The position numbers and the translations under genes are program-made. From the IMG/VR virus record IMGVR_UViG_2877948078_000003: DNA of 64,000 bases; one strand, given 5' to 3'. Within the stretch, counting starts at the first letter, position 1; every line of letters begins with the position of its first letter. The notes beneath the pieces are model-generated. The model saw only the letters and a program-made list of their open reading frames with translations, did not search any database and had not been told where the DNA came from. This document shows positions 36,834 to 52,700 of the stretch, one piece after another. This DNA is from a virus (lineage: Duplodnaviria > Heunggongvirae > Uroviricota > Caudoviricetes).

Positions 36834-38876
36834 ATGACGTCCAAATGGGTTCAACTATCATCAATGCCCGGAAACTTTACCGTTAAAGTTTCCGGTGGTA
36901 CAGCGGCATTTCTTGAGGCTCCCTTTCCTCCGGCTGAAGCGAAAGGAGGAATGACATTTGCTGACTGTCTCATCAGTTTTAATACACGGGATTGCCTGTG
37001 GGTAAGACCAGTATCCGGTGATCCGAGTGTGGAAATTACCGGAGCGGGTATTGGTGCGGTCATTCCGTTAAGTGCTGATGTTGCCGGTACTGCTGAACCG
37101 TCAGACTGGGATAATGCTGAAACACATACCCGTCCGTCAGGAAATGAAACGGCTTCCAGCTCCCCTTCCTGGTATTACGTGGTGGTTCTTGCTGGTCAGT
37201 CAAACGGTATGGCTTACGGTGAAGGTCTGCCACTGCCGGAGACATATGACCGCCCCGAACCGCGTATTATGCAGTTAGCCCGTCGCAGTACAGTCACGCC
37301 GGGAGGTAAAGCCTGTCAGTATAACGACATCATTCTGGCCGACCACTGTCTGCATGATGTGCAGGATATGAGTGGAAAAAATCACCCGAAAGCGGATGTG
37401 GCTAAAGGGCAATATGGCACCGTGAGTCAGGGGCTTCACATTGCCAAAAAACTGCTGCCGTTTATTCCGGCAGATGCGGGGATTCTGCTGGTTCCCTGCT
37501 GTCGTGGCGGTTCTGCATTCACGGCGGGTGCTGACGGCACGTACAGTGACAGCACGGGTGCTTCAGAGGACTCAGCCCGCTGGGGTGTGGATAAGCCGCT
37601 GTATAAGGACTTAATCAGCCGGACAAAAGCGGCACTGGCGAAGAACCCGAAAAACCGCCTGCTTGCTGTGGTGTGGATGCAGGGCGAGTTTGATATTGAT
37701 GCGAAGCCGACGGAGCATTCTGCGCTGTTTCTGGCGATGGTGGAAAAATTCCGCACAGACCTGGCTGAAAAAGCGGAGCAGTGTATTGGTGGCCGGACTG
37801 AAACTGTGCCGTGGATTTGTGGCGATACCACGTATTTCTGGAAAAAGAAAAATGAACCGGCATATCAGGCAATCTATGGCGGCTACAAAAACAAAACAGA
37901 TAAAAACATTCATTTCGTCCCATTAATGACAGATGAAAATGGCGCGAATGTACCCACCAACAATCCGACAGAAGACCCGGATATTGAATCCATTGGTTAT
38001 TACGGCTCAACGTGGCGTAACAGTGCTGCCACCTGGACATCTGCGGACCGGGCCAGCCATTTCAGTGCCTGGGCGCGCCGGGGAATTATTTCCGACCGTC
38101 TGGCCACGGCTGTTCTGACTCACGCAGGGCGAACCACAGTAAAAGCCGATGTTCCATCTTCTGAAACTGATGCGCCAACGCCGTCACCTTCAGAAGCTGA
38201 AACAGTAACCACAACAACACTGCTGTCTTACCGTGCCAGTGAGTCTGAAGGGAAGCTGACCGAACAGGGCTGGAGTGCAGGTGGAGGTAAAGCGGAAATT
38301 GTTGCCGATGAAGGTGCAACAGGTGGTACCGCGATGAAGCTGAGCAAGGAGACAGGAGTGGGGTCATGGTATCTGGAGCATGATGCCGGCACTGGCGCTG
38401 AACTGCTGAAAAATGGCGGTTTAATCAGCTGCCGCTTTAAGGCATCCGGTGAACTGGTAGCAAATCAGTATGTCATTGCTCTTTACTGGCCGGTTTCCTC
38501 TCTGCCGCAGGGTGTCACCCTGACAGGGGATGCAGGGAATAATCTGCTGGCAGCGTTTTACATCCAGACAGATGCAAAAGACCTGAATGTGATGTACCAC
38601 AATGCGAAGGTGGCGACAAACAACCTGAAACTGGGAAGCTTTGGCGCATTTGATAACGAATGGCATACGCTGGCCTTCCGCTTTGCCGGGAATAACAGCC
38701 TTCAGGTGACGCCGGTTATTGATGGTCAGGATGGCACACCGTTCACGCTGACGCAGTCACCGGTCAGTGCCTTTGCGACGGATAAACTGCATGTGACAGA
38801 CATTACCAAAAATGCGACTTACCCCGTGCTGATTGACAGCATTGTGGTGGAAGTGAAAAAAGCGGTAACAGAATAA
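36834..38876 (+). CDS. nanS-p: NanS-p-type sialate O-acetylesterase (SGNH/DUF303 esterase with C-terminal lectin-like domain), cargo inside the Mu-like prophage
   Basis: 680 aa; central block VVVLAGQSNGMAYGEG ... VVWMQGEFD typical of the NanS family; ~75-85% identical over most of its length to the split host-prophage copy but with a different N-terminal ~130 aa. Confidence 0.8.
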   Translation: MTSKWVQLSSMPGNFTVKVSGGTAAFLEAPFPPAEAKGGMTFADCLISFNTRDCLWVRPVSGDPSVEITGAGIGAVIPLSADVAGTAEPSDWDNAETHTRPSGNETASSSPSWYYVVVLAGQSNGMAYGEGLPLPETYDRPEPRIMQLARRSTVTPGGKACQYNDIILADHCLHDVQDMSGKNHPKADVAKGQYGTVSQGLHIAKKLLPFIPADAGILLVPCCRGGSAFTAGADGTYSDSTGASEDSARWGVDKPLYKDLISRTKAALAKNPKNRLLAVVWMQGEFDIDAKPTEHSALFLAMVEKFRTDLAEKAEQCIGGRTETVPWICGDTTYFWKKKNEPAYQAIYGGYKNKTDKNIHFVPLMTDENGANVPTNNPTEDPDIESIGYYGSTWRNSAATWTSADRASHFSAWARRGIISDRLATAVLTHAGRTTVKADVPSSETDAPTPSPSEAETVTTTTLLSYRASESEGKLTEQGWSAGGGKAEIVADEGATGGTAMKLSKETGVGSWYLEHDAGTGAELLKNGGLISCRFKASGELVANQYVIALYWPVSSLPQGVTLTGDAGNNLLAAFYIQTDAKDLNVMYHNAKVATNNLKLGSFGAFDNEWHTLAFRFAGNNSLQVTPVIDGQDGTPFTLTQSPVSAFATDKLHVTDITKNATYPVLIDSIVVEVKKAVTE

Positions 38877-39025
38877 AAAAAATCCCGCCGGTCATGATAT
38901 GGCTGGCGGGAGCTACCTAACCCATAAAGGAAAATAAAAATACTCCCGAAGGAGTAGTTATCAGTCACTTCGTCATGTTTTTACCCGATAACGAATTATG
39001 TAGTCAATATCAAAGGTAAGGTTAT

Positions 39026-39208
39026 ATGACATTCGTTCATACAATGCTGCTTTATTTCTGCGCTGTGGTCAGTGCGTTATATCTGGTGAGCGGCGGTTAT
39101 AAGGTCATCAGAAATTATATTCGCCGTAAAATTGATGATGCGGCAGCTGAAAAACTCAGTAAAACAGCACAGGCACCGTCATCCCCAAACGACCCGCCCC
39201 CGCTCTGA
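39026..39208 (+). CDS. Hypothetical small membrane protein
   Basis: 60 aa with one TM helix; RBS AAGG upstream; downstream of the esterase. Confidence 0.4.
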   Translation: MTFVHTMLLYFCAVVSALYLVSGGYKVIRNYIRRKIDDAAAEKLSKTAQAPSSPNDPPPL

Positions 39209-39243
39209 TAACGGGGCAATATACCTGCAAAAGGAGAATATTC

Positions 39244-39489
39244 ATGCCAGAGATTAAAGGCACGGTTACTGAAGAGCTTGTCAAACAGGCACTTTATTCT
39301 GAAGAAGTGAACCGCGTGCTGAAGGCGCAGGTTCGCAAGGATTTTGAGGCACAAATCGACGCATATGTTGATGAAGTGCTGGCCCGAATGGTTGGCCGTT
39401 CTCCGGCTGAAAACAGCACGGAAAATGAGCCTCAACCCGTAGAGCAACCAGAGCCGGTTCAGCCCGGAACTGACGGTACTATGATGTAA
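39244..39489 (+). CDS. Hypothetical small acidic protein
   Basis: 81 aa; RBS AAGGAG 6 nt upstream of ATG. Confidence 0.45.
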   Translation: MPEIKGTVTEELVKQALYSEEVNRVLKAQVRKDFEAQIDAYVDEVLARMVGRSPAENSTENEPQPVEQPEPVQPGTDGTMM

Positions 39490-39796
39490 CAATACCGACC
39501 GGCAGGTTTCCCTGCCGGGTGAATTTGTTAATGCACGTTTTGTGTATTTTCCCTCCGGGGAGAACAGGCAGGACATATCAGCATCCTGAAACAGGAAGCA
39601 TTTTTTGGTTTGTATGTCTTGCCATTTTGAGATCGAGAACGGCGATAGATGAGCTGTAAGGGAGTCTTACAGGCAGGGCAAACAGGCTCTTTATCCATGA
39701 TAAAGATCTCCTTTTTATGCATCTCTGCTTTACAGGAGACCGGGGAATATCATAGGATACGACACGAGCTCGAAGTAAAGCATTGATGCAAGTTTT

Positions 39797-39835
39797 TACA
39801 GATTGACCCAGCATAGTTCCAGCTATGCTGGGTTT
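39797..39835 (+). terminator. Rho-independent terminator
   Basis: Hairpin CCCAGCATAG-TTCCAG-CTATGCTGGG followed by TTTCCCTTTTAT. Confidence 0.5.
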
Positions 39836-39989
39836 CCCTTTTATGTAGTATCCTGTTGATTTGAAACATACTACATATACGCGCGATCCTACCTTCACTG
39901 TATAAAAAGTCAATAAAATGATCATTTTATGATCGTTTTCACCACCTAACTCTTCGTTTTCTTTAAGTAAATAATCACCGCCCTGAATC

Positions 39990-40100
39990 ATTGTTGATGA
40001 CTTTTCAATCTATTTGTTGTATCAATTAAACAAATCGAATCGATCGTTTTTGTCGATCGATTGCATGAGAAAGGCATCAACAACAAAGCAGGAGGTTATG
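39990..40100 (+). promoter_or_regulatory. Putative com-mom promoter region with clustered GATC (Dam) sites
   Basis: AT-rich region with GATC-containing repeats (AATCGATCG, GTCGATCGATT) just upstream of com, as in Mu where Dam methylation and C control Pmom. Confidence 0.4.
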
Positions 40101-40105
40101 CGGCC

Positions 40106-40306
40106 ATGTATCGAAACATACGGTGCCGACACTGCAATAAGCTACTGGCACGGGCCAGTTTCAGTTATCTGGAAGTAAAATGTCCGCGCTGTAAAACCCT
40201 CAATCAAATCACATCTCCGAGCGCCACAGAGCACCCCACATACACAAGGAAATCCTGTCGTGGGGAACAGAAAGCAAGTCACATCCCGAATCATCAGCAC
40301 GCCTGA
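40106..40306 (+). CDS. com: Com-like zinc-finger translational activator of mom
   Basis: [31 protein letters not shown] (CxxC ... CxxC) resembles Mu Com; RBS AGGAGG upstream; overlaps the mom start. Confidence 0.7.
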
Positions 40307-40997
40307 ACTTATTCGCTATAACGACAATATCGTTGGTTATGGCTCCCGTGAGTTGCGGGTTGAGACAATAAGTTGCTGGCTGGCCAGACTGGTCATCGTC
40401 AATAAACATTACAGCCACCGTTTCGTAAATAACTCCTACCTTCATCTGGGCATATTTTCAGAACGGGAACTTGTTGGCGTAATGCAATGGGGTTACGCCC
40501 TTAACCCAAACAGTGGTGCACACGTCGTAACGGGTACGCAGAACCGAGAATATATGGAGCTTAACCGGCTATGGCTGCATGACTGTATGCCGAGAAACTC
40601 CGAATCAAGGGCAATCAGTTACGCGCTCAAGCTAATCAGACAGCTTTATCCGCAGGTACAGTGGGTTCAGTCGTTTGCAGATGAGCGTTGTGGCTGTCTT
40701 GGTGTCGTGTATCAGGCAAGCAATTTTGATTATGTAGGCAGCCATGAATCAACATTCTATGAACTTGATGGCGAGTGGTATCACGAGATTTGCAGGAATG
40801 CCATTAAACGAGGCGGACAACGAGGTGAACATCTGAGGGCTAATATCGACAGAGCCAGTGTTCATAAGTTCCGACAGTTTCGTTACATCCGGTTTCTGAA
40901 CAAGAGGGCCAGAAAACGCCTCAACACAAAGCTATTCAAAGTCCAGCCTTACCCAAAACCACAAACTGTTAAAACCGGTTTGAAAGAGATTGGGTGA
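40260..40997 (+). CDS. mom: Mom-like DNA modification protein (anti-restriction adenine modification)
   Basis: 245 aa starting at GTG inside the com 3' end as in Mu; last gene before the right end. Confidence 0.7.
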
Positions 40998-41039
40998 GTG
41001 CTTAAAAACTCATTCTAAAACGCAAAGGAAAAGCGCCGA

Positions 41040-41124
41040 TTTAGTATCAAATAAGTTGCGTATCGGCGTTTTTCAGCGGTATCAAATGAAATGCAAATCG
41101 GTATCAAAAAAATCGCCGCGCTAT
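41040..41124 (+). repeat. Mu-like right end (attR) with inverted candidate transposase-binding motifs
   Basis: AGTATCAAA at 41043-41051, GGTATCAAA at 41078-41086 and 41100-41108: reverse complements of the left-end motifs; terminus reads ...CGCGCTAT rather than the canonical CA. Confidence 0.55.
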
Positions 41125-41129
41125 ACTCC
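41125..41129. repeat. Right copy of the 5-bp target-site duplication ACTCC
   Basis: Identical to 2240-2244. Confidence 0.6.
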
Positions 41130-42631
41130 GCACCCTGTCCGGCTGCATCATGCTCCAGAAACCAGATGTGGTTTTCCGGTTTGTTCAGTTGCAGAGCCTT
41201 ACCTCCCGTAGCCCCCGCATCACTGACCACCGCTTCAGCAATGTTTTTGTTAACACTGTCTCCGCCCGCCGGTTTGTGATAATAGCGCCAGCCCTGTGAT
41301 GCCAGGTCTTCGCCGGATGCCAGCAGACTCATCAGGGTTCGGTTACTGACCGGGGCTTCCGCCTCTCTCTCCGGACCTTCACCGGAAGGTACGGTGGGCT
41401 TCACCATATCAGGCTGTTTTCCGGTAATGAATTCAGCGGTTCTCCCGGCGTGCACCAGAATCGCCGTTGCCAGACGGTCGGAAATAATCCCCCGGCGTGC
41501 CCAGGTGCTGAAATGGCTCGCCCTGTCCTGTGACGTCCAGGTGGCTGAGCTGTCACGCCATTTCGAACCGTAATACCCGATACCCGGAATGTCCGGGTCT
41601 TCTTCCGGTTTGTTCGTCGGCACATTCACCCCGTTCTCATCCGTCATGAACGGTACGAAATGGATATTCTTTTCCGTTTTGTTTTTATAGCTGCCGTACA
41701 CCGTCTGGTACGTGGATTCGTTCTTCTGCTTCCAGAAATACGTCGTGTCCCCGCATATCCAGGGAACACTGCCAGCAGAGCCACTGACGCACTGGCCTGC
41801 CATATCCGCCAGGTCTGCACGGAATTTATCAACCAGCGCACCAAACTGTGCTGCGTGATTTCCGGGCGTGCCGTCAAAATCAAATTCCCCCTGCATCCAC
41901 ACCACGGCAAACAGCACATTTTTCGGGTTCTTCTTCAGTGCTGCTTTTGTTCGACCGATAAGGTCCTTATACAGCGGCTTGTCCACACCCCAGCGCGCTG
42001 AATTCTCCGAGGCACCGCCAGCGTCACTGTATGTGCCATCAGCTCCGGTGGTGAACGCTGAACCACCACGACAGCACGGAACCAGCAGAATACCCGCATT
42101 CGCCGGTATAAACGGCAGCTGTTTTTTGGCGATATGCAGCCCCTGCCCCACGGTACCGTACTGCCCCTTTGACAGGTCCGCTTTCGGATGGTTAAGGCGG
42201 CTCATGTCCTGCACATCATGCAGACAATGGTCCGCCGGAATGATGTCGTTATATTTGCATGCTGCACCGCCCGGTGTCACCGTACTGCGGCGCGCCAGCT
42301 GCTTAATGCGCGGGTCCGGACGGTCATATGTCTCCGGCAGCGGAAGACCTTCACCATACGACATGCCATTTGACTGCCCTGCCAGAACCACAACAAAGTA
42401 ATACTCCGGGTCGCTGGTGGCACTGACAGCCACCACCTTACCCTCATTACCGGTCACCGCCACTGGTGTGGTGACATCACCTTCCGCCGCAATGGCCTGC
42501 ATCAGGGTATAAGGCGTGATGGCCACCGGACTGCCAAATGGCTGCCAGCCCTCCTTCAGTTTTTGTGTCAGTCGTTCAGCAAGGTCTGACGGCGATGCCG
42601 CCCTGACCACATCGTAGTGTTTAAATGCCAT
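41125..42631 (-). pseudogene. nanS-p: 5' (N-terminal) part of the nanS-p-type esterase gene interrupted by the Mu-like prophage
   Basis: Minus-strand translation from ATG 42631 through ...FLEHDAAGQGAE is NanS-like; beyond 41125 the frame reads through Mu-like end sequence to a fortuitous stop at 41015. Confidence 0.8.
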
Positions 42632-42699
42632 GAATCCTCCCGGCCGGGATAATGTTCTGAGTCAGAGAAGGCACGGGCTGACCTCCGGAAACACAAAAG

Positions 42700-42858
42700 T
42701 CACACAGAAAAACAGCCCGCAAAAAAGAAATACGCCCTTACAGTTGCGCAAGGTGATTACTCTAAGGTATTATTAGGGTGCTGAATAAATTACTTCACGT
42801 TTTGTTATTTATTCCTTGCTTCCTTGCCAACCGCTCTTCCCAGGAGCGGTTTTTTTTT
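42700..42858 (+). ncRNA. Candidate small RNA / conserved promoter-terminator module (copy 1)
   Basis: TTGCGC-18 bp-TATTAT promoter-like pair followed ~75 nt later by hairpin CCGCTCTTCCCAGGAGCGG plus T9; a second diverged copy at 45455-45590 keeps the same signals. Confidence 0.3.
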
Positions 42859-42859
42859 A

Positions 42860-43890
42860 CATGTAAAAAGGCTCCTGCGATGAGGAGCCTGGATGTATGC
42901 CTAATCTCTGTATACTGCATGGTGCCGGGTGCCTCCCGGTGAACAAATGTCCGTGATATCAGTCGGCCACACAGGAAATGATACGATATCACCCCTCCGC
43001 ACAGGGGGATTCACCATGCCCGTTTTTTTTAACAAACTCCTCATCAATCAGACAATCATCAACCTCATGAATTGTGAGGAATTTAACATTTCACAACACA
43101 GCCTTTTCCCTGCATAAAAAAGCCCCTCCGGAGAGGGGCTTCGCTACGTGTCTGTTAACCATATGCATGATGCCGGGTGCCTCCCGGTGAGTTCAGTATC
43201 AGCACCTGAACCCGCACAGAAAGGATAGAGTAGAAACACCTGCGCTGATATGCCCCTCCGCTCAGGGGGATTCACCATGCAGAACTTTTTTAACAACTCC
43301 CCGTAAGACAGGCAAGCATCAACCATCTGAACTGTGAGGAATTTAACATTTCACAACACAGCGTTTTTCCTGCATAAAAAAGCCCCTCAGGAGAGGGGCT
43401 GACACTGCGTATCTGTATCATCATGAACATGGTGCCGGGTGCCTCCCGGTGAGTCCAGTCTGGTGTCCCTGAACCCGCGTTTGCATTGCCTACAACAGAA
43501 AAGATGCAAATCACACCAGTCGCCCCTCCGCACAGGGGGATTCACCATGCAGAACTTTTTTAACAACTCCCCCTCAGACAGGCAAGCATCAACCATCTGA
43601 ACTGTGAGGAATTTAACACTTAACAACACAGCCTTTTCCCGCACAAAAAAAGCCCCTCCGGAGAGGGGCCGATCGCTATGTATACACCATAAGCAGCATA
43701 GTGCCGGGTGCCTCCCGGTAGATTCAGCCTGACTACTGAATCTGCGTATTGTGACCATCGCTATGGAGACCATGTCAGACGCCCCTCCGCACAGGGGGAT
43801 TCACTATGCTGGCTCGTTTTTACAAGACTTCCATCGATCAGACAATAGCCCATCAACCGAATTGTGAGTCATTTAACATTTCCATGAGGT
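42860..43890. repeat. Tandem array of four ~250-270-bp non-coding direct repeats with conserved hairpins and a variable core
   Basis: Each unit carries GGTGCCGGGTGCCTCCCGGTGA, CCCCTCCGCACAGGGGGATTCACCATGC, a variable ~40-bp segment, TGTGAGGAATTTAACATTTCACAACACAG and terminator-like AAAAAGCCCCTCCGGAGAGGGGCT; no ORF conserved between units. Confidence 0.7.
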
Positions 43891-44127
43891 AACTGATATC
43901 CAGCTAACAATCATCTACAATGGACGAAGCCAGTTCCAGAACTTGCCCACGGTACAGCAACAACCACTGCATACACATAATTACCACCGGACTCTCTGAA
44001 CCTGCCTACTGGCTAACCCCAGATACAACACCACCAGTCACAAAAGCATCTTATTCTGAAGTACAACTGCCGTGCGGCAGATACTAAAAGCGCCTGTATG
44101 TAACAACATAAATATACAGGATATGTT

Positions 44128-44406
44128 TTATCCACGGGATATAATTTTGATTTCATCAAAACCGTTACTACCTGCAATTCTGTTGTACTCCTGAACAAGA
44201 CTCAGTAACTCCGAATTAGCCGCGGTGAACTCCTCACAGACGTTCCGAAGTGCATCTACATCCAGAAGAACCATCTCCTGACCTGAACGTCGATCAGGGG
44301 TACAAAATAAAACTGTCAGACGACTGAAGACCTTTGTTCGTTCCACATTGACGGCTTCAATACGCTGTAACAGTTGGCTACATCTGATTTTCTCATCAAT
44401 ATTCAC
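44128..44406 (-). CDS. Hypothetical protein (92 aa) downstream of the AraC-family regulator
   Basis: ORF on the cargo strand, AT-rich. Confidence 0.45.
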   Translation of the reverse strand: MNIDEKIRCSQLLQRIEAVNVERTKVFSRLTVLFCTPDRRSGQEMVLLDVDALRNVCEEFTAANSELLSLVQEYNRIAGSNGFDEIKIISRG

Positions 44407-44495
44407 GCAAACACCAAATGATTATAACTTTTTATGCTGAACACATTCAGACTATATCTAATACAGTCAATCAATATATGCCTGATGAAAAAACA

Positions 44496-45221
44496 TCAGA
44501 TAACGTCTGCTTTCTGCAAATATGCATAGCTCTCAGGTGGTGCACCATAATACTGGTGAAATACAGAAATGAAGTAGGACTTACTTGAGTAACCACATTT
44601 TTCCGCTATCGCTTGTCCACACTCTCGCTGGAAACATACAAGATTAACAGCAACACGCATTCGCTCCTCCAGCAACAACCGACTAAAGCTATAACCTTCA
44701 TCCTTAAGTTTTCGCTTCAACAAGCTTTCGCTCATATGCAATTGTAATGCAATCACACCAAGCATCCAGCCTGCCGATATGTCGGTCTGAATTATAGCCC
44801 TTACTTTACAGCTGATATTATTTACAGCACCGGACAAAAATAATGGCAGACGTCTGTCTGTTGCAAATAAGGAGATACATGAAAATGCGGTTATAACAGA
44901 GAAATCCTTCAAAGTATCACTGGATTCACTATGCTGGGTTATTAAAGCCTCCGCCAGTTCCGTATTGTAAATATCAGACATCAAATAAAGAGGCATTTTT
45001 GTCGGTGTATACTCCGTCATTTCACACTCCCTTTCCAGATACTGATTGACGACGCTGTTACTTATATCTGCCATTTTCACTCTGTCGGCATAAGCACAGA
45101 AAAGCCCTCTTATATTTCTGGCAACAAGCATAACACTTCCGGCATCGAGTGAAACTTTTTCTTTTTCAAGAAAAATATCTATCGGATAGCGAATCAGGAC
45201 CACAGAGCAGGCAACATCCAT
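44496..45221 (-). CDS. AraC/XylS-family transcriptional regulator (prophage-encoded, PatE/GadX-like class)
   Basis: 241 aa; C-terminal double HTH of the AraC family (KCGYSSKSYFISVFHQYYGAPPESY); AT-rich. Confidence 0.8.
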   Translation of the reverse strand: MDVACSVVLIRYPIDIFLEKEKVSLDAGSVMLVARNIRGLFCAYADRVKMADISNSVVNQYLERECEMTEYTPTKMPLYLMSDIYNTELAEALITQHSESSDTLKDFSVITAFSCISLFATDRRLPLFLSGAVNNISCKVRAIIQTDISAGWMLGVIALQLHMSESLLKRKLKDEGYSFSRLLLEERMRVAVNLVCFQRECGQAIAEKCGYSSKSYFISVFHQYYGAPPESYAYLQKADVI

Positions 45222-45304
45222 TTTGAATTAACCTGAGCAAAAAGACTTAATACCAGTATATTCCAAAAATGGCATTTTGGGAGATTACTTCTGCAAACCG
45301 CTCC

Positions 45305-45448
45305 CGCTAAATACATCCCTGATTTCCTGCGCAGTCTGTTCAAAACGCCCGGTATCCAGCTCAACGCCAGTTGCACGACGCCCCAGCGCCATCGCTGCTT
45401 TAACTGCCGAACCCTACCCCATGAAGAAATCTGCAACCAGGACACCCG
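45305..45448 (-). pseudogene. 3' remnant of a second N6-adenine methyltransferase gene
   Basis: ~140 bp near-identical to the 3' end of the methyltransferase gene at 46829-46990; homology breaks sharply at 45448/45449 where the promoter-terminator module begins. Confidence 0.55.
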
Positions 45449-45454
45449 GCAGAA

Positions 45455-45590
45455 GGGAGACTACAGCCCGCAATTCGAAAAAGGCCACGCTATTGCGCAG
45501 AGTGATTACTGTCGGGTATTATTCGCCAGTTGAAGTATTACTTCACGTTTTATTGTTTATTCCTTGCCGCCCGCGTCTCCCAGCGCGGGC
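45455..45590 (+). ncRNA. Candidate small RNA / conserved promoter-terminator module (copy 2)
   Basis: Same TTGCGC / TATTAT signals and terminator hairpin GCCCGCGTCTCCCAGCGCGGGC + T7 as copy 1. Confidence 0.3.
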
Positions 45591-45596
45591 TTTTTT

Positions 45597-45860
45597 TGTC
45601 CATAAGAAAGCCCCTCCGGAGAGGGGCTGAAGCCGCATTTCTGTATCACCATGAGCATGGTGCCGGGTGCCTCCCGGTGAGTTCAGCCCGGTGACACCAA
45701 ACCCGCGTATTCTCGCTTACGATCATCAAAGAGATCATACCGTTCACCAGTCGCCCCTCCGCACAGGGGGATTCACCATGCGAAATTTTTTTAACAAATG
45801 CTCAGTCTGACAGGCAACTGTCAACTTACTGAATTGTGAGGGATTTAACACTTCACAGAA
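45597..45860. repeat. Solo fifth copy of the ~260-bp repeat unit
   Basis: Contains all conserved blocks of the array units with its own variable core. Confidence 0.65.
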
Positions 45861-45916
45861 CAATATCTTTCCAGCGCCCCAAAATCATCAGGACAGGAGA
45901 AAATCTTCTCCCCCTG

Positions 45917-46345
45917 TCAGAGTTTAAAATCCAGCACGCCATTTCTAAATGCTTTATATACTCCTGAAGACGGTGGTGATGGTATATCAGCATTCTTTAC
46001 TGCATTCATCGCTTCACGACATAAATCGGGATCACCGCTTTCTCTTTTAACCTGTAGCAGAAGACCATTCGGGGCCATATACATTCTCAGTGAACACTCT
46101 TTTCCTGAATACTTACTCGCATCCTTTAACTGTTCTTCTATGGCTTTCCTGACCTGAATGGCATACTGCCGGATTTCTTCACTGGCATCAGGGGTACGTT
46201 CCGATGAGCTCAAATTTTGCGACTTTATTAATTTATCTGAGTGATACAGAGAAGCATCATGATTATTTGTCGATACATCTTTTGTGCAGCCAGTTGTCAG
46301 ACTGGCTAATATCAAAACAAGAACAGGTACAGCACGGCAATACAT
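45917..46345 (-). CDS. Lipoprotein of unknown function
   Basis: 142 aa; signal peptide with lipobox LTTGC. Confidence 0.6.
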   Translation of the reverse strand: MYCRAVPVLVLILASLTTGCTKDVSTNNHDASLYHSDKLIKSQNLSSSERTPDASEEIRQYAIQVRKAIEEQLKDASKYSGKECSLRMYMAPNGLLLQVKRESGDPDLCREAMNAVKNADIPSPPSSGVYKAFRNGVLDFKL

Positions 46346-46623
46346 TTATCCATCTCCATATTAACAAGAACAATTATCTATAAAATATAGTAAATATGCG
46401 GGATCCGGGAGGACTTGTAACTATCATCTCCGGATCAGCATGTAGTTTTTATTTTTCCGGATGATATATGCCGCAATAATACCCCTGCATACAGATGCCT
46501 GCAAATATCTACGAAGCATCCGGCGAGAATAAACAAGGAAGTCTGAGGCTATCTTATATGATAGCCTGTTGCTCAAAAGACAATGATTCACTCATCAGAA
46601 CCAACAACGCATAATGCAGATAA

Positions 46624-46700
46624 TGGACCGCCATCGAGGACTCGAACCCCGCGCAGCCAGCTTCGAAGGCTGGCGCTCTATCCCGATGAGCTAATGGCGG
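46624..46700 (-). tRNA. tRNA-Arg (anticodon UCG)
   Basis: Cloverleaf folded by hand: acceptor CCGCCAT/ATGGCGG, D stem GCTC/GAGC, anticodon stem CCAGC/GCTGG with loop CTTCGAA, T loop TTCGAGT, encoded CCA. Confidence 0.85.
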
Positions 46701-46709
46701 TATGTGATA

Positions 46710-46785
46710 TGGTGGCCCTTGCTGGATTTGAACCAGCGACCTGGCGATTATGAGTCGCTCGCTCTCACCACTGAGCTAAAGGGCC
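46710..46785 (-). tRNA. tRNA-Ile2 (anticodon CAU, ileX/ileZ-like); tRNA-Met not excluded
   Basis: GGCCCTTTAGCTCAGTGGTGAGAGC...CTCATAA...GGTTCAAATCC...GGGCCACCA closely resembles E. coli ileX as recalled; anticodon loop CTCATAA. Confidence 0.85.
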
Positions 46786-46825
46786 GGGCGCAGGATAATA
46801 ACGGTACGTAACTAATCCTGCAATA

Positions 46826-47884
46826 TCATCCATTCTGACTGACTAAATCCTGTACTTCCCTGACCGTCTGCTCAAAACGTTCAGTCTCCAGCTCAACGCC
46901 AGTTGCACGACGCCCCAGCGCCATCGCGGCTTTGACTGTCGAACCCGACCCCATGAAGAAATCTGCAACCAGGTCCCCCGGACGACTGCTCGCGCTGATT
47001 ATCTGCTGCAGCATTTCTGCCGGTTTTTCGCACGGATGTTTCCCGGGATAGTACTGCACCGGTTTATGCGTCCACACATCCGTGTACGGCACCTGCGCCG
47101 TCACGCCAAAATACCGCCGCAGATGCTTATATTCACTCTGCAGTTCCGCATACTGCCGGTTCAGTGAAGTATACGTCTCCAGCAGCTGGTGGTGGGGCTT
47201 TTCCAGTTCACCGCGCTGATGCTTCTCTTCTGCCACCCGGGCAAACAGCGCCTGTAATTTCAGATAATCACTTTCGTTCGGTAGCTGCCACTGACTGGCA
47301 CTGAACCAGTGCGACACCATGTTTTTCTTTCCTGTGGCATCCACTATCTGTTTTGCCGTTATCCCCAGGGCAGCACGCGCATCACGAAAGTAAGCAATCA
47401 GCGGAGCCATCACATGCTGTTTCAGTGCCCTGCCCTTCGCCTCATACCCGGCATCTTTCGGACGATACGGCCCCTGATAATGTTCCGCGAACAGAATGCG
47501 CTCTGTGGCGGGGAAATACGCCCTCAGGCTTTCCTTGTTGCACCCGTTCCAGCGTCCGGACGGCTTCGCCCAGATAATATGGTTCAGCACACTGAAGCGT
47601 TCACGCATCATGATTTCGATATCAGATGCCAGGCGATGGCCACAGAACAGGTAAAGACTTCCGGCAGGTTTCAGCACCCGCCAGAACTGCGCCAGACACT
47701 GGTCCAGCCATTTCAGGTAATCCTCATCACCCGTCCACTGGTTATCCCAGCCCTCAGGCTTCACTTTAAAGTACGGCGGGTCCGTGACTATCAGGTCAAC
47801 AGAATTTTCGGGTAACGACCGGATAAATTCCAGGCAGTCGGCGTTGATTAACTCACAACTGGATATTTTTACAGTATTAAACAT
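46826..47884 (-). CDS. DNA N6-adenine (or N4-cytosine) methyltransferase, orphan
   Basis: 352 aa; DPPY motif (IVTDPPYF) near the N-terminus and FxGxG (FFMGSGST) near the C-terminus; no adjacent restriction endonuclease. Confidence 0.85.
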   Translation of the reverse strand: MFNTVKISSCELINADCLEFIRSLPENSVDLIVTDPPYFKVKPEGWDNQWTGDEDYLKWLDQCLAQFWRVLKPAGSLYLFCGHRLASDIEIMMRERFSVLNHIIWAKPSGRWNGCNKESLRAYFPATERILFAEHYQGPYRPKDAGYEAKGRALKQHVMAPLIAYFRDARAALGITAKQIVDATGKKNMVSHWFSASQWQLPNESDYLKLQALFARVAEEKHQRGELEKPHHQLLETYTSLNRQYAELQSEYKHLRRYFGVTAQVPYTDVWTHKPVQYYPGKHPCEKPAEMLQQIISASSRPGDLVADFFMGSGSTVKAAMALGRRATGVELETERFEQTVREVQDLVSQNG

Positions 47885-48035
47885 GGATCATTAAGCCTGT
47901 CTCTGATAAGCTCATACCGCTTTTGCGCAAAGCAGATGGGCCTGAGGTTTGCTTGTGACCCCAACGCATGAGCAGATGGCTGGTGAGTGCCCCTAACACC
48001 CACCAGCCGCCCATTTACCACAAATAAAAAAGCCT

Positions 48036-48233
48036 TCAGGACTGAAGGCGTCTGTAACAACCAAACTGATAGTCTGCCAGACCCGCCATAACAAGCTGGG
48101 TCAGTATTAGCTGGCAGCGTTCGCGTGAAAGGTACGTATTCTGTGCAATCTCCCCGACTGTCGCCGGTTCGGTGGCACTTAATTCATTAAAAACTGCTCT
48201 GGCGGTTTCTGTCATATCCTGCTGTTTCAGCAT
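48036..48233 (-). CDS. Small HTH/winged-helix-like protein
   Basis: ~65 aa from the internal Met (ORF extends to 48269); TVGEIAQNTYLSRERCQLILTQLVMAGL resembles a DNA-binding helix pair. Confidence 0.4.
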   Translation of the reverse strand: MLKQQDMTETARAVFNELSATEPATVGEIAQNTYLSRERCQLILTQLVMAGLADYQFGCYRRLQS

Positions 48234-48406
48234 GTCTTTTTCCCTTTTCCGGTTAACGTGACACACCAATAACTCTTGTCAAAAAAGCCAGCAAGCTGAA
48301 AGACCGGTATTAATAACCACCTGCACATTTTATGTACTGCACCATTTTTCTGGCATAAAAAAACCGCTCAATGCCGGGCAGTAAAATCTTTATTACTCAG
48401 GAAATT

Positions 48407-49120
48407 TTAACGTACTCTGACAGTATTAATTTCAAAATCATTAATATTTCCGCTATTAAATATAACGAATTTCTTACCCCCACTCCTGTATGATTTCGAT
48501 AACACCAGACGATCATCATAGCGCGCAATAATGTAATACCATACATTCTCATAGTGGACCGCCTGATATTCCCTCTTAAACTGTGGTTTGTACCAACCGG
48601 CAATAAGAGAGAATGCCCAGAAATAAATCATAAACCCAGCCATCATGAACTCAATTCGGTGATGGCGAATAATAGACATTTCCGAAAAACATTTGACTGA
48701 AACAAGTCTTCTTCCAGACCTGACAAAAAGCGTGATTGCAAAGGCAGCAAGAACGCAGAAAATCAGTACATCTGGCTCAACATGCTGATGAATTACAGAA
48801 AACTCCAGAACAGGTGGAATAAAAAGCAGCAATATCGCGAGAAAAAGCCGGATAAAACTCAAATTTTGTATATTGCGCTTTTGTTTTATGCCCAAAAAGA
48901 AAACAATACCAACTCCCCATCCAATAAGGAATATAACAATAACTGTCACAGCATAAAACAAACTTCGTGCTACATCATCGACACCAGCCCCGACAACCCA
49001 CCATGGAAAGCCATAGTAAAATGAAGTACCCCACCCATAGAAATAAGCGCTCCCCCATCCGAGACAGCCCATATAAGCAACAAAAAGTGAAGAGTTTCTG
49101 AGCAGAGCACTGTCATCCAT
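48407..49120 (-). CDS. Multi-pass integral membrane protein, AT-rich cargo gene directly downstream of Q
   Basis: 237 aa; ~5 predicted TM helices in the N-terminal 160 aa plus a soluble C-terminal ~70 aa; local GC far below the prophage average. Confidence 0.6.
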   Translation of the reverse strand: MDDSALLRNSSLFVAYMGCLGWGSAYFYGWGTSFYYGFPWWVVGAGVDDVARSLFYAVTVIVIFLIGWGVGIVFFLGIKQKRNIQNLSFIRLFLAILLLFIPPVLEFSVIHQHVEPDVLIFCVLAAFAITLFVRSGRRLVSVKCFSEMSIIRHHRIEFMMAGFMIYFWAFSLIAGWYKPQFKREYQAVHYENVWYYIIARYDDRLVLSKSYRSGGKKFVIFNSGNINDFEINTVRVR

Positions 49121-49372: not shown

Positions 49373-50044
49373 CTATGAAAATGCCGCCTTTTGTTTTGAA
49401 CGTGTTCCCTCCACCAACAATAAAGCTTCACTATCCAGCCGATGAAAAATGTGTTTCATTGCAACCCAGTGACCAGTAAATGTCTTGGACCAGTTTTTGG
49501 TTGTTACTCCCACCAGTAACGCCAGTTCCTGGTATTCGTAACCTTCCCCACCAAAAAGCTCAGCTTTTACCGCCTGCGCCGCCAACCAGATCAACGTCTT
49601 CAGGCGCACCAGAGTTTTTCCTGCAATTTTTCTGGTACCGGATTGAGCATTAAATTCAGTCCACGCCCACTGCGTTATCGCGATCTGATGCTCCCAGCAA
49701 ATGCTACCGCTGTAACACCACAGCAGCCAGGCTTTATGATGTTCTTCAAGAGACAGAACGGCGCGTCGCCATGATGATGTCGAAAACTCAACCGGACTGA
49801 CCAGGGCAATTGATGAGCCTTTCGCCAGTGATTGTTTACCCGGGATCGGGGGATTATCCCGCGTGATCATTTTTCCGGTTACCTCATCGCGGTAACGAAT
49901 TTTTTTGCGTCTGTAACGCCCTGTATCGAACAGGGCATTTTCCTGCCAGACTTCCAGCTGGCCTTTTGTCGACCCACTAAGATCCGCAGTGGCAATCATG
50001 AGTTGCTCACGAACAAACTGTAAATACTGGTTATTCATGCACAC
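49373..50044 (-). CDS. Putative antitermination protein Q (long Q family)
   Basis: 223 aa located directly after rusA as in DLP12/Qin-type prophages; assignment rests mainly on position. Confidence 0.55.
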   Translation of the reverse strand: MCMNNQYLQFVREQLMIATADLSGSTKGQLEVWQENALFDTGRYRRKKIRYRDEVTGKMITRDNPPIPGKQSLAKGSSIALVSPVEFSTSSWRRAVLSLEEHHKAWLLWCYSGSICWEHQIAITQWAWTEFNAQSGTRKIAGKTLVRLKTLIWLAAQAVKAELFGGEGYEYQELALLVGVTTKNWSKTFTGHWVAMKHIFHRLDSEALLLVEGTRSKQKAAFS

Positions 50045-52248: not shown

Positions 52249-52404
52249 TTACTTCTCAGATTCGTAGTCTACGAAGACAGCAACCTCCGTCTGGCCGGTT
52301 CGGATTCGTACCTCGCAGAGGTCTTTCCTCGTTACCAGTGCCGTCACTATGACGGTTAAACAGATGACGATCAGGGCGATTAACATCGCCTTTTGCTGCT
52401 TCAT
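52249..52404 (-). CDS. hok: Hok/Gef-family type I toxin
   Basis: 51 aa MKQQKAMLIALIVICLTVIVTALVTRKDLCEVRIRTGQTEVAVFVDYESEK, near-identical to Hok/Gef toxins as recalled; the frame is also open upstream (70 codons in total). Confidence 0.85.
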   Translation of the reverse strand: MKQQKAMLIALIVICLTVIVTALVTRKDLCEVRIRTGQTEVAVFVDYESEK

Positions 52405-52700
52405 AGCCTGCTTCTCCTTGCCTTTCGGCACGTAAGAGGCTAACCTACGTTTGTGAAGCATAGATTGGGCCTCAGATTAATGTTAAGTGTCCTGCAAGAC
52501 GCGTAATGTTAACTGGGGCTTTTCTCTGTCTGCCTTACGGCGGCATGCCCGAGGCAAACAGCCTCAAGCACCCGCAGCAATTCTACTTAACTCTCCTTTT
52601 CCCGCAAACCGTTTTTATCCCCAGCGGCAAATCGAATACACCACCAGCGCCACCGCCAGTGCGATTCCTACCGTTGTGAATGCTTCAGACCAGGTCATCG
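52405..52700 (-). promoter_or_regulatory. hok mRNA leader region, expected to carry the mok-overlap and sok-like antisense RNA
   Basis: Inferred from the conserved organisation of hok/sok loci; GC-rich structured leader upstream of hok. Confidence 0.35.

Follow-up and report, generated by a model that had tools for sequence, protein, structure and literature searches.

On the minus strand of a lambdoid prophage region, we identified five repeat units that are members of STnc100, a catalogued prophage small-RNA (sRNA) family known in pathogenic E. coli as the EcOnc27/PasD group. The window analysed is the whole 64,000-nucleotide stretch of viral DNA. In a covariance-model scan, all five units (U1 to U5) are full-length matches to the Rfam family RF02076, with scores of 119.5-172.4 bits against a curated gathering score of 47 bits and a full model spanning positions 1-206. 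The cmscan E-values, from 2e-26 to 6e-40, exclude chance as the source of the repeats. The first-pass annotation had matched the units to no RNA family, and the Rfam search now provides one for all of them. Its proposal of structured small-RNA genes on the minus strand is supported by these matches together with helix covariation and terminators. From the observed anatomy and strand of the units, their family membership, the covariation of their helices and their genomic setting, we consider it probable that the units are separate STnc100-family genes carried as lysogenic-conversion cargo by a lambdoid prophage of Shiga-toxin-type E. coli.

The repeats are real but mostly ordinary, and the four head-to-tail copies are their sole unusual point. 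Such a four-copy tandem array is rare within E. coli, present in 79 of 5426 complete genomes, all of one prophage lineage; strains 2013C-3181, O113:H21 FWSEC0010 and O91:H21 FWSEC0008 are examples of carriers. Arrays of two to four copies recur in prophages of other Enterobacterales, and about 30 of 227 loci have arrays of this size. Across this order only the core is kept while the flanks differ, with core-bearing taxa including Citrobacter, Enterobacter, Pantoea, Erwinia, Klebsiella, Rahnella, Salmonella and others. A megablast search against phage genomes returned 352 records, all partial matches, none of which spans at least 80% of the locus. To the literature found, this analysis adds the rarity of the array, its pseudoknotted core and a placement of the seed based on PasD.

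Gene anatomy and genomic setting

A repeat search recovered four head-to-tail copies at 42858-43889 and a solo copy at 45599-45865, the arrangement first described, along with every shared block quoted for it. The 125-nt repeat family D1 has start-to-start spacings of 260, 270, 260 and 1972, and the 39-nt family D4, GGTGCCGGGTGCCTCCCGGTGA, has spacings of 248, 262, 269 and 1959, with an array period of 248-270 nt. Tandem Repeats Finder did not detect the array because its copies have diverged by indels. On the minus strand, U1 occupies 42858..43101 (RF02076, 141.3 bits, model 1-206 of 206), U2 43112..43361 (141.7 bits), U3 43372..43631 (140.8 bits), U4 43642..43889 (119.5 bits) and the solo U5 45599..45865 (172.4 bits); within the array, U4 comes first in the order of transcription and U1 last. 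About 1.3 kb at the locus is blank in the current RefSeq annotation.

Aligned with one another, the units have conserved blocks that are 88-100% identical and an internal segment with only 13-58% identity between units. U2 and U3 illustrate this, with flanks that are 89-96% identical and a core that is only 46% identical. The internal segment measures 52-76 nt, longer than the roughly 40 bp first estimated, and it is not the single variable segment it was taken to be, as the 3' linker is a second one (22-77% identity among units).

The promoter layout of the units is sigma-70-like, with a -35 element TTGYCT, a spacer of about 18 nt and an extended -10 element, TGTTAAAAA. These hexamers lie directly upstream of the first helix, P1, across the family. 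The -10 element is a weak one (TAAAAA), which a consensus promoter scan missed. In U1, TTGTCT lies at 43055-43050 and TGTTAAAAA at 43034-43026, and a conserved block identified by alignment and sequence reading lies upstream at about 43070-43101; U5 has TTGCCT, 18 nt and TGTTAAAAA. A TGTGA-N13-TCACA inverted repeat is also seen upstream of four of the five units. Homology with the mapped 5' end of PasD2 predicts that transcripts start at the G of GCAUGGUG, position 43019 in U1. The corresponding predicted 5' ends are 43280 in U2, 43550 in U3, 43809 in U4 and 45781 in U5, and the predicted minus-strand RNAs would measure about 155-185 nt.

At the other end of the gene, U2-U5 carry the hairpin AGCCCCTCTCCGGAGGGGCT with a T-run after it, which scores as an intrinsic terminator on the minus strand. 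The role first assigned to this hairpin thus holds for four units, and U1 ends instead in a different terminator, AGGCTCCTCATCGCAGGAGCCT plus Ts. The linker and terminator span 42916-42858 in U1 (terminator stem 42890-42869) and 43164-43112 in U2, and the terminator stems of U3, U4 and U5 lie at 43400-43381, 43670-43651 and 45628-45609. A terminator scan gave 14 terminator-like sites where 2.9 +/- 1.7 were expected, and a terminator follows 3-85 nt past the P5 helix in 141 of 226 family members.

With Q (49373-50044) on one side and the lysis genes on the other, the array occupies the cargo (moron) region, and the gene positions bear out the cargo location originally suggested. Its neighbours are an AraC-like gene, a TolA-like gene (TolA_C) and a SASA esterase gene (41015-42631). 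The same placement is found in Superficieibacter, where the order is DnaB, RusA, Q, three cores and lysozyme.

Only U1 and U5 form convergent sRNA dyads, each lying between cargo and esterase and meeting a short sRNA-like gene of the plus strand tail to tail. The gene facing U1 (42744..42859) combines a GU-rich body with a promoter-like TTGCGC..TATTAT and with a plus-strand terminator at 42829-42851 followed by a T-run, and is a direct repeat of 45493-45597 (repeat families D7, D10 and D11). Its position is that of the anti-sRNA partner in the dyads of Tree et al. 2014. The gene convergent with U5 (45493..45598, terminator 45569-45590) has a near-identical counterpart at the corresponding position in the Stx2a phage Stx2_14040, and the 3' part of the window gene, CACGUUUUAUUGUUUAUUCCUUGCCGCCCGCGUCUCCCAGCGCGGGCUUUUUUU, matches the EPEC RIL-seq candidate E2348C_1409.E2348C_1408.IGR. 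Terminators of opposing strands abut at 42829-42890 and 45569-45628. An E2348 candidate with 73 interactions, considered as a homologue of the partners, proved to be a plasmid RNA. Membership of the partners in the AsxR/AgvB families (RF02703/RF02702) was rejected on the covariance models, which gave no match to E = 1 over 40000-49000, covering both plus-strand partners, and none to E = 10 in the second partner (45485-45605). The same search found AsxR in Sakai at 88.1 bits.

A pseudoknotted core and a variable linker

The 5' domain of the units, 96-120 nt long, consists of the closing helix P1, P2, a strand S1, a hairpin of variable length, P4 and P5. The P2 hairpin carries a conserved GCGG loop, P5 stacks directly on P1, and S1 pairs with the loop of P4 to form a pseudoknot. 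In U1, P1 is formed by 43019-43012 with 42924-42917, P2 by 43007-42992 and P5 by 42939-42925, and the pseudoknot joins UGAUAUC with GAUAUCA. U2 pairs GCAUGGUG with CAUCAUGC in P1, including one G-U pair, with P2 at 43268-43253, P5 at 43187-43173 and a pseudoknot of UAUCAGC with GCUGAUA. In U3, P2 lies at 43538-43523 and P5 at 43449-43435, and CUGGUGU pairs with ACACCAG. The P1 of U4, GCAUAGUG with CACUAUGC, departs from that of the other units by a compensatory double change; its P5 lies at 43718-43704 and its pseudoknot is CUGAC with GUCAG. U5 has P5 at 45677-45663 and pairs CUGGUGA with UCACCGG. The pseudoknot is kept in all five window units, by four different sequences.

Covariation analysis over homologues, which had been proposed as a check on the units, supports P1, P4 and the pseudoknot. 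P1 is 93% paired with compensatory changes at seven of eight pairs, and P4 is 95.5% paired with compensatory changes at all seven. The covariation score is 0.369 against 0.159 for shuffled alignments (0 of 500 as high) and 0.08-0.12 for slid registers. For the pseudoknot, fixed MAFFT columns pair only 50% of cells, as subfamilies differ in register by 1-2 nt, and they were replaced by a duplex test of own against permuted partners. S1 pairs with its own P4 loop at an average duplex energy of -7.08 kcal/mol; with permuted partners the figure is -3.43 +/- 0.17, and 0 of 2000 permutations reach the own-partner value. The pairing is formed by 100 different duplexes with 5 bp or more. Of the 1013 pairs in the pseudoknot, 123 are G-U, as are 254 of the 1258 in P4, and, being strand-specific, these G-U pairs support the assignment of the RNA strand. 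The invariance of P5 is an ascertainment artefact, as the P5 18-mer was the search key.

Several junction and loop nucleotides are invariant (GAAUCC, the GCGG loop and the GCG ahead of P4), and mutual information between P2-loop and junction positions revealed no further tertiary pair. In a single-sequence minimum free energy fold of U5 (z = -2.78), P2 is paired to the terminator; this fold was set aside, as it conflicts with the covariation-supported one. The "hypervariable core" of the first-pass annotation is structurally constrained, comprising the pseudoknot strand, the variable hairpin and P4, all upheld by compensatory changes, which contradicts its reading as a free targeting cassette. 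The core pseudoknot may be missing from the structure line of RF02076.

The linker between this domain and the terminator is 24-27 nt long, single-stranded in the model and different in each unit. In PasD, the seed predicted from RIL-seq (UGUGAG) lies in the 3' linker just ahead of the terminator and fits the motif common to PasD RIL-seq targets. By homology, the seed of the units is likely to be the 3' linker and not the core. The UGUGAG motif is absent from the linkers of the window units, and the linker of U3-U5 contains CAUGGUG, a copy of the 5' strand of P1. A riboswitch-like hairpin between the 3' strand of P1 and the linker, considered in view of this copy, is unsupported across the family (-2.98 kcal/mol for own linkers against -3.30 for permuted ones).

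Function of the units and competing explanations

Judging from their homologues, lysogens would produce the unit RNAs, Hfq would be bound by the module of linker and terminator, and the variable linker would be the part that pairs with mRNAs. The array would then supply several paralogous regulators with differing specificities, and the conserved 5' domain may be a stabilising scaffold, possibly one that binds protein. In this account, U2-U4 are additional copies gained upstream of the first dyad, probably via recombination between such modules. Two observations sit uneasily with separate base-pairing genes. The most conserved part of the units is the 5' domain and not the putative seed, which is unusual for base-pairing sRNAs and suggests that the domain has a function of its own. 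In addition, a few related arrays (Pantoea L170, IMG/VR L011) have cores 20-35 nt apart with no terminators in between, a poor fit to one seed per core.

An alternative that we regard as possible but unlikely is that the pseudoknotted 5' domain (P1, P2, the S1:P4-loop pseudoknot and P5) is itself the functional unit, an autonomous module, kept in late regions of Enterobacterales prophages, that binds a protein or small ligand, with Hfq pairing secondary or absent. Arrays would then act as multivalent decoys or sponges, tandem copies raising valency. Conservation of the core alone across Enterobacterales with differing flanks would fit such a role, as would the polycistronic core-only arrays and the recurrence of two- to four-copy arrays, and the combination of invariant junction and loop nucleotides with covarying helices and a pseudoknot is typical of aptamers and protein-binding RNAs. 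However, no partner is known, and most members carry a classic Hfq module of AU-rich linker and terminator. The seed predicted for PasD is located outside the core and agrees with the RIL-seq target motif, and PasD, which is without P5, still yields Hfq chimeras. No Rfam riboswitch or ribozyme family matches the domain, and the lack of support for a P1/linker hairpin weighs against a switch. A riboswitch or attenuator was likewise rejected for the locus, where the covariance-model scan gave no Rfam riboswitch match, the promoter lies right at P1, and each unit is followed by a further unit or by a convergent gene. If the decoy reading were true, the targets might be, for example, a host RNA-binding protein or a defence nuclease, and the Hfq-dependent seed would be a later add-on.

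It is improbable that the units work in cis, on the late transcript of the phage, as serial terminators, attenuators or 3' stabilisers that would insulate the moron genes and nanS-p in the lysogen. They share the orientation of the late operon, every one finishes with an intrinsic terminator, and they lie directly downstream of cargo (stx2B, TolA-like or AraC-like) and upstream of the esterase and lysis genes, as such a role would predict. Yet each unit has its own promoter at P1, PasD and EcOnc27 accumulate as discrete Hfq-bound RNAs, and a bare terminator would be enough to insulate, with no need of a 100-nt covarying pseudoknotted domain. We give very little credence to the idea that the repeats function as DNA, whether as a protein-binding array, recombination sites or a degenerate MITE or IS, or that they encode small proteins. 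Tandem repeats with conserved blocks, short ORFs with conserved ends on both strands and the inverted repeat upstream of four units are what would recommend it. Compensatory changes and strand-specific G-U pairs instead indicate selection on an RNA fold, and they contradict the array of protein-binding DNA sites originally offered as an alternative. A MITE or IS remnant, named at the outset as a refuting case, was discarded: the inverted repeats found are terminator hairpins and chance pairs only, and no terminal inverted repeats flank the units. As for small proteins, a plus-strand frame, "MPPGE...SPLRTGGFTM", is kept in three of the five units, so the small ORFs are not wholly unconserved as claimed. 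Family-wide, however, the spacing of conserved blocks has no multiple-of-3 bias (64/77/58 by remainder over 199 members), and stops interrupt 106 of 187 translations in the sense frame and 138 of 206 in the antisense frame, leaving no coding constraint and no case for a small protein gene.

The locus shows that the STnc100 family can expand into arrays of diverged paralogues inside one prophage. The most variable segment of STnc100 is held in shape by a pseudoknot, and its invariant part is a large 5' domain common to Enterobacterales. The locus offers handles on the function of the family.

Relation to known small RNAs

STnc100 is among the most frequently annotated bacterial sRNA families and is listed without a function. 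Its member EcOnc27/sRNA103 lies downstream of stx2B in the Stx2 phage Sp5/933W, was recovered by Hfq-CRAC and has been detected by Northern probing. The stx2-adjacent STnc100 copy overlaps with sequence variants that have been reported as predictors of haemolytic uraemic syndrome. The window units resemble EcOnc27 in strand relative to the late genes, in position between cargo and the nanS-p esterase gene, and in terminator and promoter layout. The Sakai EcOnc27 copy scores 207.7 bits against RF02076, and the 3' linker and terminator of U1 resemble those of this copy. Outside the variable hairpin, U5 and the copy that follows stx2B in Stx2a phage Stx2_14040 are near-identical. Unlike EcOnc27, the units occur as four tandem copies plus one 2 kb away, and their cargo neighbours are AraC-like and TolA-like rather than stx. 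EDL933 has 11 transcribed STnc100 copies, one confirmed by Northern blot, and these are dispersed, one per prophage, in contrast to the array described here.

PasD1 and PasD2 (EcOnc13, EPEC E2348/69), for which Northern bands and RIL-seq chimeras on Hfq are available, share P1, P2 and P4 with the units. Their 5' end falls exactly at the G of GCAUGGUG, as predicted for the units, and they have the same linker-plus-terminator design and the same location upstream of a sialate esterase gene. The PasD pseudoknot, AUGAUC with GAUCAU, corresponds to the S1:P4-loop pairing. PasD2 differs from the units in its score (41.4 bits, under the RF02076 threshold) and in being without the P5 hairpin. Common ancestry has been proposed by Zhu et al., and the functions of the Pas sRNAs are described as "not elucidated". 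Although related to PasD, the window units are of the STnc100 type.

Dyads at the PR' moron site of EHEC, in which the anti-sRNAs AsxR and AgvB face EcOnc27 and EcOnc06, were described by Tree et al. 2014. U1 and U5 are similar in facing a short plus-strand sRNA-like gene between cargo and esterase, and the Sakai locus, with STnc100 and AsxR, has the same arrangement. In contrast to the EHEC dyads, the window partners fall outside AsxR/AgvB and resemble an uncharacterised EPEC candidate, and U2-U4 are without a partner.

For the decoy reading only, the units can be compared with CsrB/RsmZ and ToxI, which also consist of repeated structured modules, in tandem and sometimes co-transcribed; the ToxI modules are pseudoknotted, as the units are. 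The units differ in being about 250 nt rather than 36 nt long, with no GGA-loop motifs and no adjacent toxin gene, and in that each STnc100 unit is usually a separate gene. A ToxI-like type III antitoxin array was rejected on the period of 248-270 nt against about 34-36 nt and on the AraC-like, TolA_C and SASA esterase neighbours. OmrA/OmrB, PrrF1/PrrF2 and Qrr1-5 are paralogous sRNA genes that each have their own promoter and terminator and share a scaffold. They have no sequence relationship to the units but resemble them as adjacent or multiple paralogues that differ in part. Whereas OmrA/OmrB, PrrF and Qrr keep the seed and vary elsewhere, the units keep the pseudoknotted 5' domain, and it is their putative seed that varies.

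STnc100-family units and their genomic setting

Sequence reading and a repeat search place four head-to-tail units at ~42858-43900 (U4 to U1 in order of minus-strand transcription) and a fifth, solo unit, U5, at ~45599-45875, with start-to-start spacing of 248-270 nt inside the array and ~1960-1970 nt to U5. Tandem Repeats Finder reported nothing at the array because the copies differ by indels. When the five units are aligned on the minus strand, they share an upstream conserved block, GAAATGTTAAATTCCTCACAATTC, the further blocks GCATGGTGAATCCCCCTGTGCGGAGGGGC and ACCGGGAGGCACCCGGCACCATGC, and, as a third conserved kind of sequence, a GC-rich hairpin followed by a T-run. Identity between units is 88-100% in the conserved blocks, only 13-58% in an internal segment, and 22-77% in a second variable segment that runs from the last block to the terminator. 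A terminator scan scores the hairpins as intrinsic terminators of minus-strand transcription; its 14 terminator-like sites in 3.4 kb compare with an expectation of 2.9 +/- 1.7. These results bear out the first-pass annotation, made by reading the sequence, in its account of a tandem array with a solo copy and of hairpins that would terminate minus-strand transcripts.

It matched the units to no RNA family, but they belong to a known one: a covariance-model scan against Rfam assigns all five, full length and on the minus strand, to RF02076, "Gammaproteobacterial sRNA STnc100" (172.4, 141.7, 141.3, 140.8, and 119.5 bits; gathering score, 47 bits). The repeats are real and non-coding, and the window units add new, unannotated members to a known family of prophage sRNAs. 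EDL933 carries 11 dispersed STnc100 copies, which are transcribed, one having been verified by Northern blot. The copy 3' of stx2B is the Hfq-bound sRNA EcOnc27 (alias sRNA103), STnc_100 RNA has been detected in STEC outer-membrane vesicles, and a 2026 preprint concludes that the EPEC sRNAs PasD1 and PasD2 have a common ancestor with STnc100. The Sakai Sp5 copy scores 207.7 bits with the RF02076 model.

Late transcription of the window prophage uses the minus strand, along which the genes run NinG-like/DUF968, RusA, Q (49373-50044), two small ORFs, DNA methylase, tRNA-Met(CAT), tRNA-Arg, TolA_C lipoprotein, U5, a methylase 3' remnant, an AraC-family regulator, a 92-aa ORF, U4 to U1, and a SASA/NanS-p esterase. 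Strain 2013C-3181 has an identical prophage in which holin, lysozyme, and lysis genes come next and the annotation is empty over the array. The proposed cargo position between Q and the lysis genes is supported; it is the "moron" site of Tree et al., where those authors found convergent sRNA gene pairs in at least eight Sakai prophages. Neither the 92-aa ORF (44128-44406, minus), which adjoins the AraC-like regulator, nor a 237-aa ORF downstream of Q (48407-49120, minus), a predicted multi-pass membrane protein, has a Pfam match.

The esterase ORF 3' of the array (41015-42631, minus) has 538 aa, compared with 654 aa in the otherwise identical 2013C-3181 prophage. To its left, where lysis genes would stand, come a plus-strand Mom-family gene (40260-40997) and, also on the plus strand, a second SASA esterase with DUF6645 (36834-38876), and 36834-42631 may be a junction or rearrangement of two prophage segments. 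The tRNA at 46710-46785 (minus) is Met(CAT) according to ARAGORN and tRNA-Ile in the RefSeq and Sakai annotations (ileZ-like, presumably lysidine-modified); followed by tRNA-Arg(UCG), it forms a typical Stx-phage tRNA cluster upstream of cargo. In the early region, Rfam matches the sok antitoxin RNA at 52399-52573 (minus, 115.8 bits), and the homologous RefSeq prophage has a Hok/Gef gene annotated at that position, which together indicate a hok/sok type I toxin-antitoxin locus.

The dyad architecture of the moron site, two sRNA genes converging tail to tail, is present twice in the window. Short plus-strand sRNA-like genes, each with a plus-strand terminator, face U1 (42744-42859) and U5 (45493-45598), and the repeat search identifies them as direct repeats of each other. 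Both have a promoter-like TTGCGC..TATTAT, a GU-rich body containing CCUUGC, and a strong terminator. Whereas the partner in the Sakai dyad is AsxR (RF02703, 88.1 bits), the window partners do not match the Rfam AsxR, AgvB, or Esr41 models. Among EPEC RIL-seq candidates they match the uncharacterised E2348C_1409.E2348C_1408.IGR, and they also match the element at the corresponding place in Stx2a phage Stx2_14040.

A pseudoknotted RNA core

Mapping put the 5' end of PasD2 at the G of GCAUGGUG (NC_011601 position 741157). In the window units this G lies 6 nt 3' of an extended -10, TGTTAAAAA, with an invariant TTGYCT ~18 nt further upstream, as seen in the alignment and by sequence reading. Among 226 members of the family, TTGAC-type -35 and -10 hexamers end just 5' of the closing helix P1, and a terminator lies 3-85 nt 3' of hairpin P5 in 141. 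The predicted RNAs begin on the minus strand at 43019 (U1), 43280 (U2), 43550 (U3), 43809 (U4), and 45781 (U5), and are ~155-185 nt long. About 50 nt upstream of each -35 is a conserved block, GTTGTGAAATGTTAAATTCCTCACAATTC (43070-43101, 43330-43361, 43600-43631, 43860-43885, and 45842-45865, minus), which may serve as a binding site for a regulator or as a target for an RNA. In four of the five units its sequence makes up a TGTGA-N13-TCACA inverted repeat, and it includes CUCACA, which has been reported as the motif that the PasD seed targets.

Relatives were gathered from IMG/VR and GTDB species genomes with the 18-mer ACCGGGAGGCACCCGGCA; genome matches include Citrobacter, Enterobacter, E. 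albertii, Superficieibacter, Pantoea, Erwinia, Klebsiella, Rahnella, and Salmonella. A search of these loci with nhmmer found 312 copies in 227 of 242, most conserving only a core of 95-132 nt from UGGUGAAUCC to ACCGGGAGGCACCCGGCACCA. In 43 diverse cores, P1 is 93% paired with compensatory changes in 7/8 pairs, and helix P4 is 95.5% paired with compensatory changes in 7/7; P5 is invariant in the gathered set only because its sequence was the search key. Whole-structure covariation is 0.369, against 0.159 in shuffles (0/500 reach the observed value) and 0.08-0.12 in slid registers. G-U pairs are frequent and so settle which strand is the RNA.

Additionally, S1, the strand just 3' of hairpin P2, is complementary to the P4 loop, giving an H-type pseudoknot that is absent from the cmscan structure line. 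S1 pairs with its own loop at a mean duplex energy of -7.08 kcal/mol, versus -3.43 +/- 0.17 for permuted partners (z = -22; reached in 0/2000 permutations), and 100 different duplexes reach 5 bp or more. The pseudoknot persists in every window unit, in four different sequences (UGAUAUC/GAUAUCA, UAUCAGC/GCUGAUA, CUGGUGU/ACACCAG, CUGAC/GUCAG, and CUGGUGA/UCACCGG), and PasD2 keeps it as AUGAUC/GAUCAU. U4 also has a compensatory change in P1, GCAUAGUG/CACUAUGC. A mutual information search for additional tertiary pairs saw none. The "hypervariable core", previously read as a free targeting cassette, is therefore a structurally constrained region, its pseudoknot maintained by compensatory changes.

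Alternative readings and probable mode of action

A coding reading was rejected on the spacing of the conserved blocks (64/77/58, taken mod 3) and the common stops. Small ORFs crossing the units were earlier described as not conserved in frame or length; a plus-strand frame happens to persist in 3/5 window units. DNA-level repeats were likewise rejected: the repeat search found no terminal inverted repeats of the kind expected of a degenerate IS or MITE, and the RNA-type covariation speaks against the suggested array of protein-binding sites as well. The 3' linker of U3 (43426-43415), U4 (43691-43683), and U5 (45654-45643; all minus) starts with a near-copy of the P1 5' strand (CAUGAUG, UAUGGUG, and CAUGGUG, respectively), which could pair with the P1 3' strand as an alternative hairpin in the E. 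coli subgroup only. For the family as a whole, a member's own linker offers the P1 3' strand no better pairing than the linkers of other members do (P1 itself, as control, gives z = -27), and riboswitch-like switching is not supported.

Because the predicted PasD seed, UGUGAG, sits in the 3' linker, the linkers, which differ between window units, are more likely specificity determinants than the "hypervariable core". By analogy with these homologues, the likeliest mechanism would be Hfq-dependent base pairing through the variable linker, with the conserved pseudoknotted 5' domain acting as a scaffold. Evolution conserves this scaffold rather than the seed, which leaves room for it to bind a protein or ligand, a role we consider rather improbable.

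Rarity and origin of the array

Of 5426 complete E. coli genomes, 3117 contain locus-related sequence and only 78 the whole 4+1 arrangement. A query across a unit-to-unit junction is matched over its full length in 79 genomes, never below 99% identity; they represent a single prophage lineage, with strains such as O113:H21, O91:H21, and O22:H8. Tandem arrangement is rare in E. coli. Several observations from sequence comparison favour, as the probable origin, exchange between modules by recombination over a simple duplication in place: U2 and U3 have flanks 89-96% identical and cores only 46% identical, the 3' end of U1 matches Sakai EcOnc27, and U5 matches the copy in phage Stx2_14040. A 143-bp direct repeat of the DNA methylase 3' end (45307-45449 versus 46839-46981, 84% identity) suggests that recombination joined two cargo cassettes in succession, each with a dyad at its end. 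The 45307-45449 copy is a remnant, which the identical RefSeq prophage carries as an annotated pseudogene, and lies just upstream of the AraC-like cargo gene.

Outside E. coli, same-strand arrays of 2-4 copies occur in ~30 of 227 loci, one of which, in Superficieibacter, sits between Q and the lysozyme gene. In Ca. Pantoea formicae (L170:12780-13620, minus) and an IMG/VR sequence (L011:3050-3850, plus), three cores stand just 20-35 nt apart, with no terminator between them and one after the last; these cores would be co-transcribed, unlike the window's one gene per unit. The Pas sRNA preprint describes PasA and PasD copies as distal rather than as tandem duplicates, and the STnc100 copies of EDL933 occur one per prophage, whereas the window carries four in tandem plus one.
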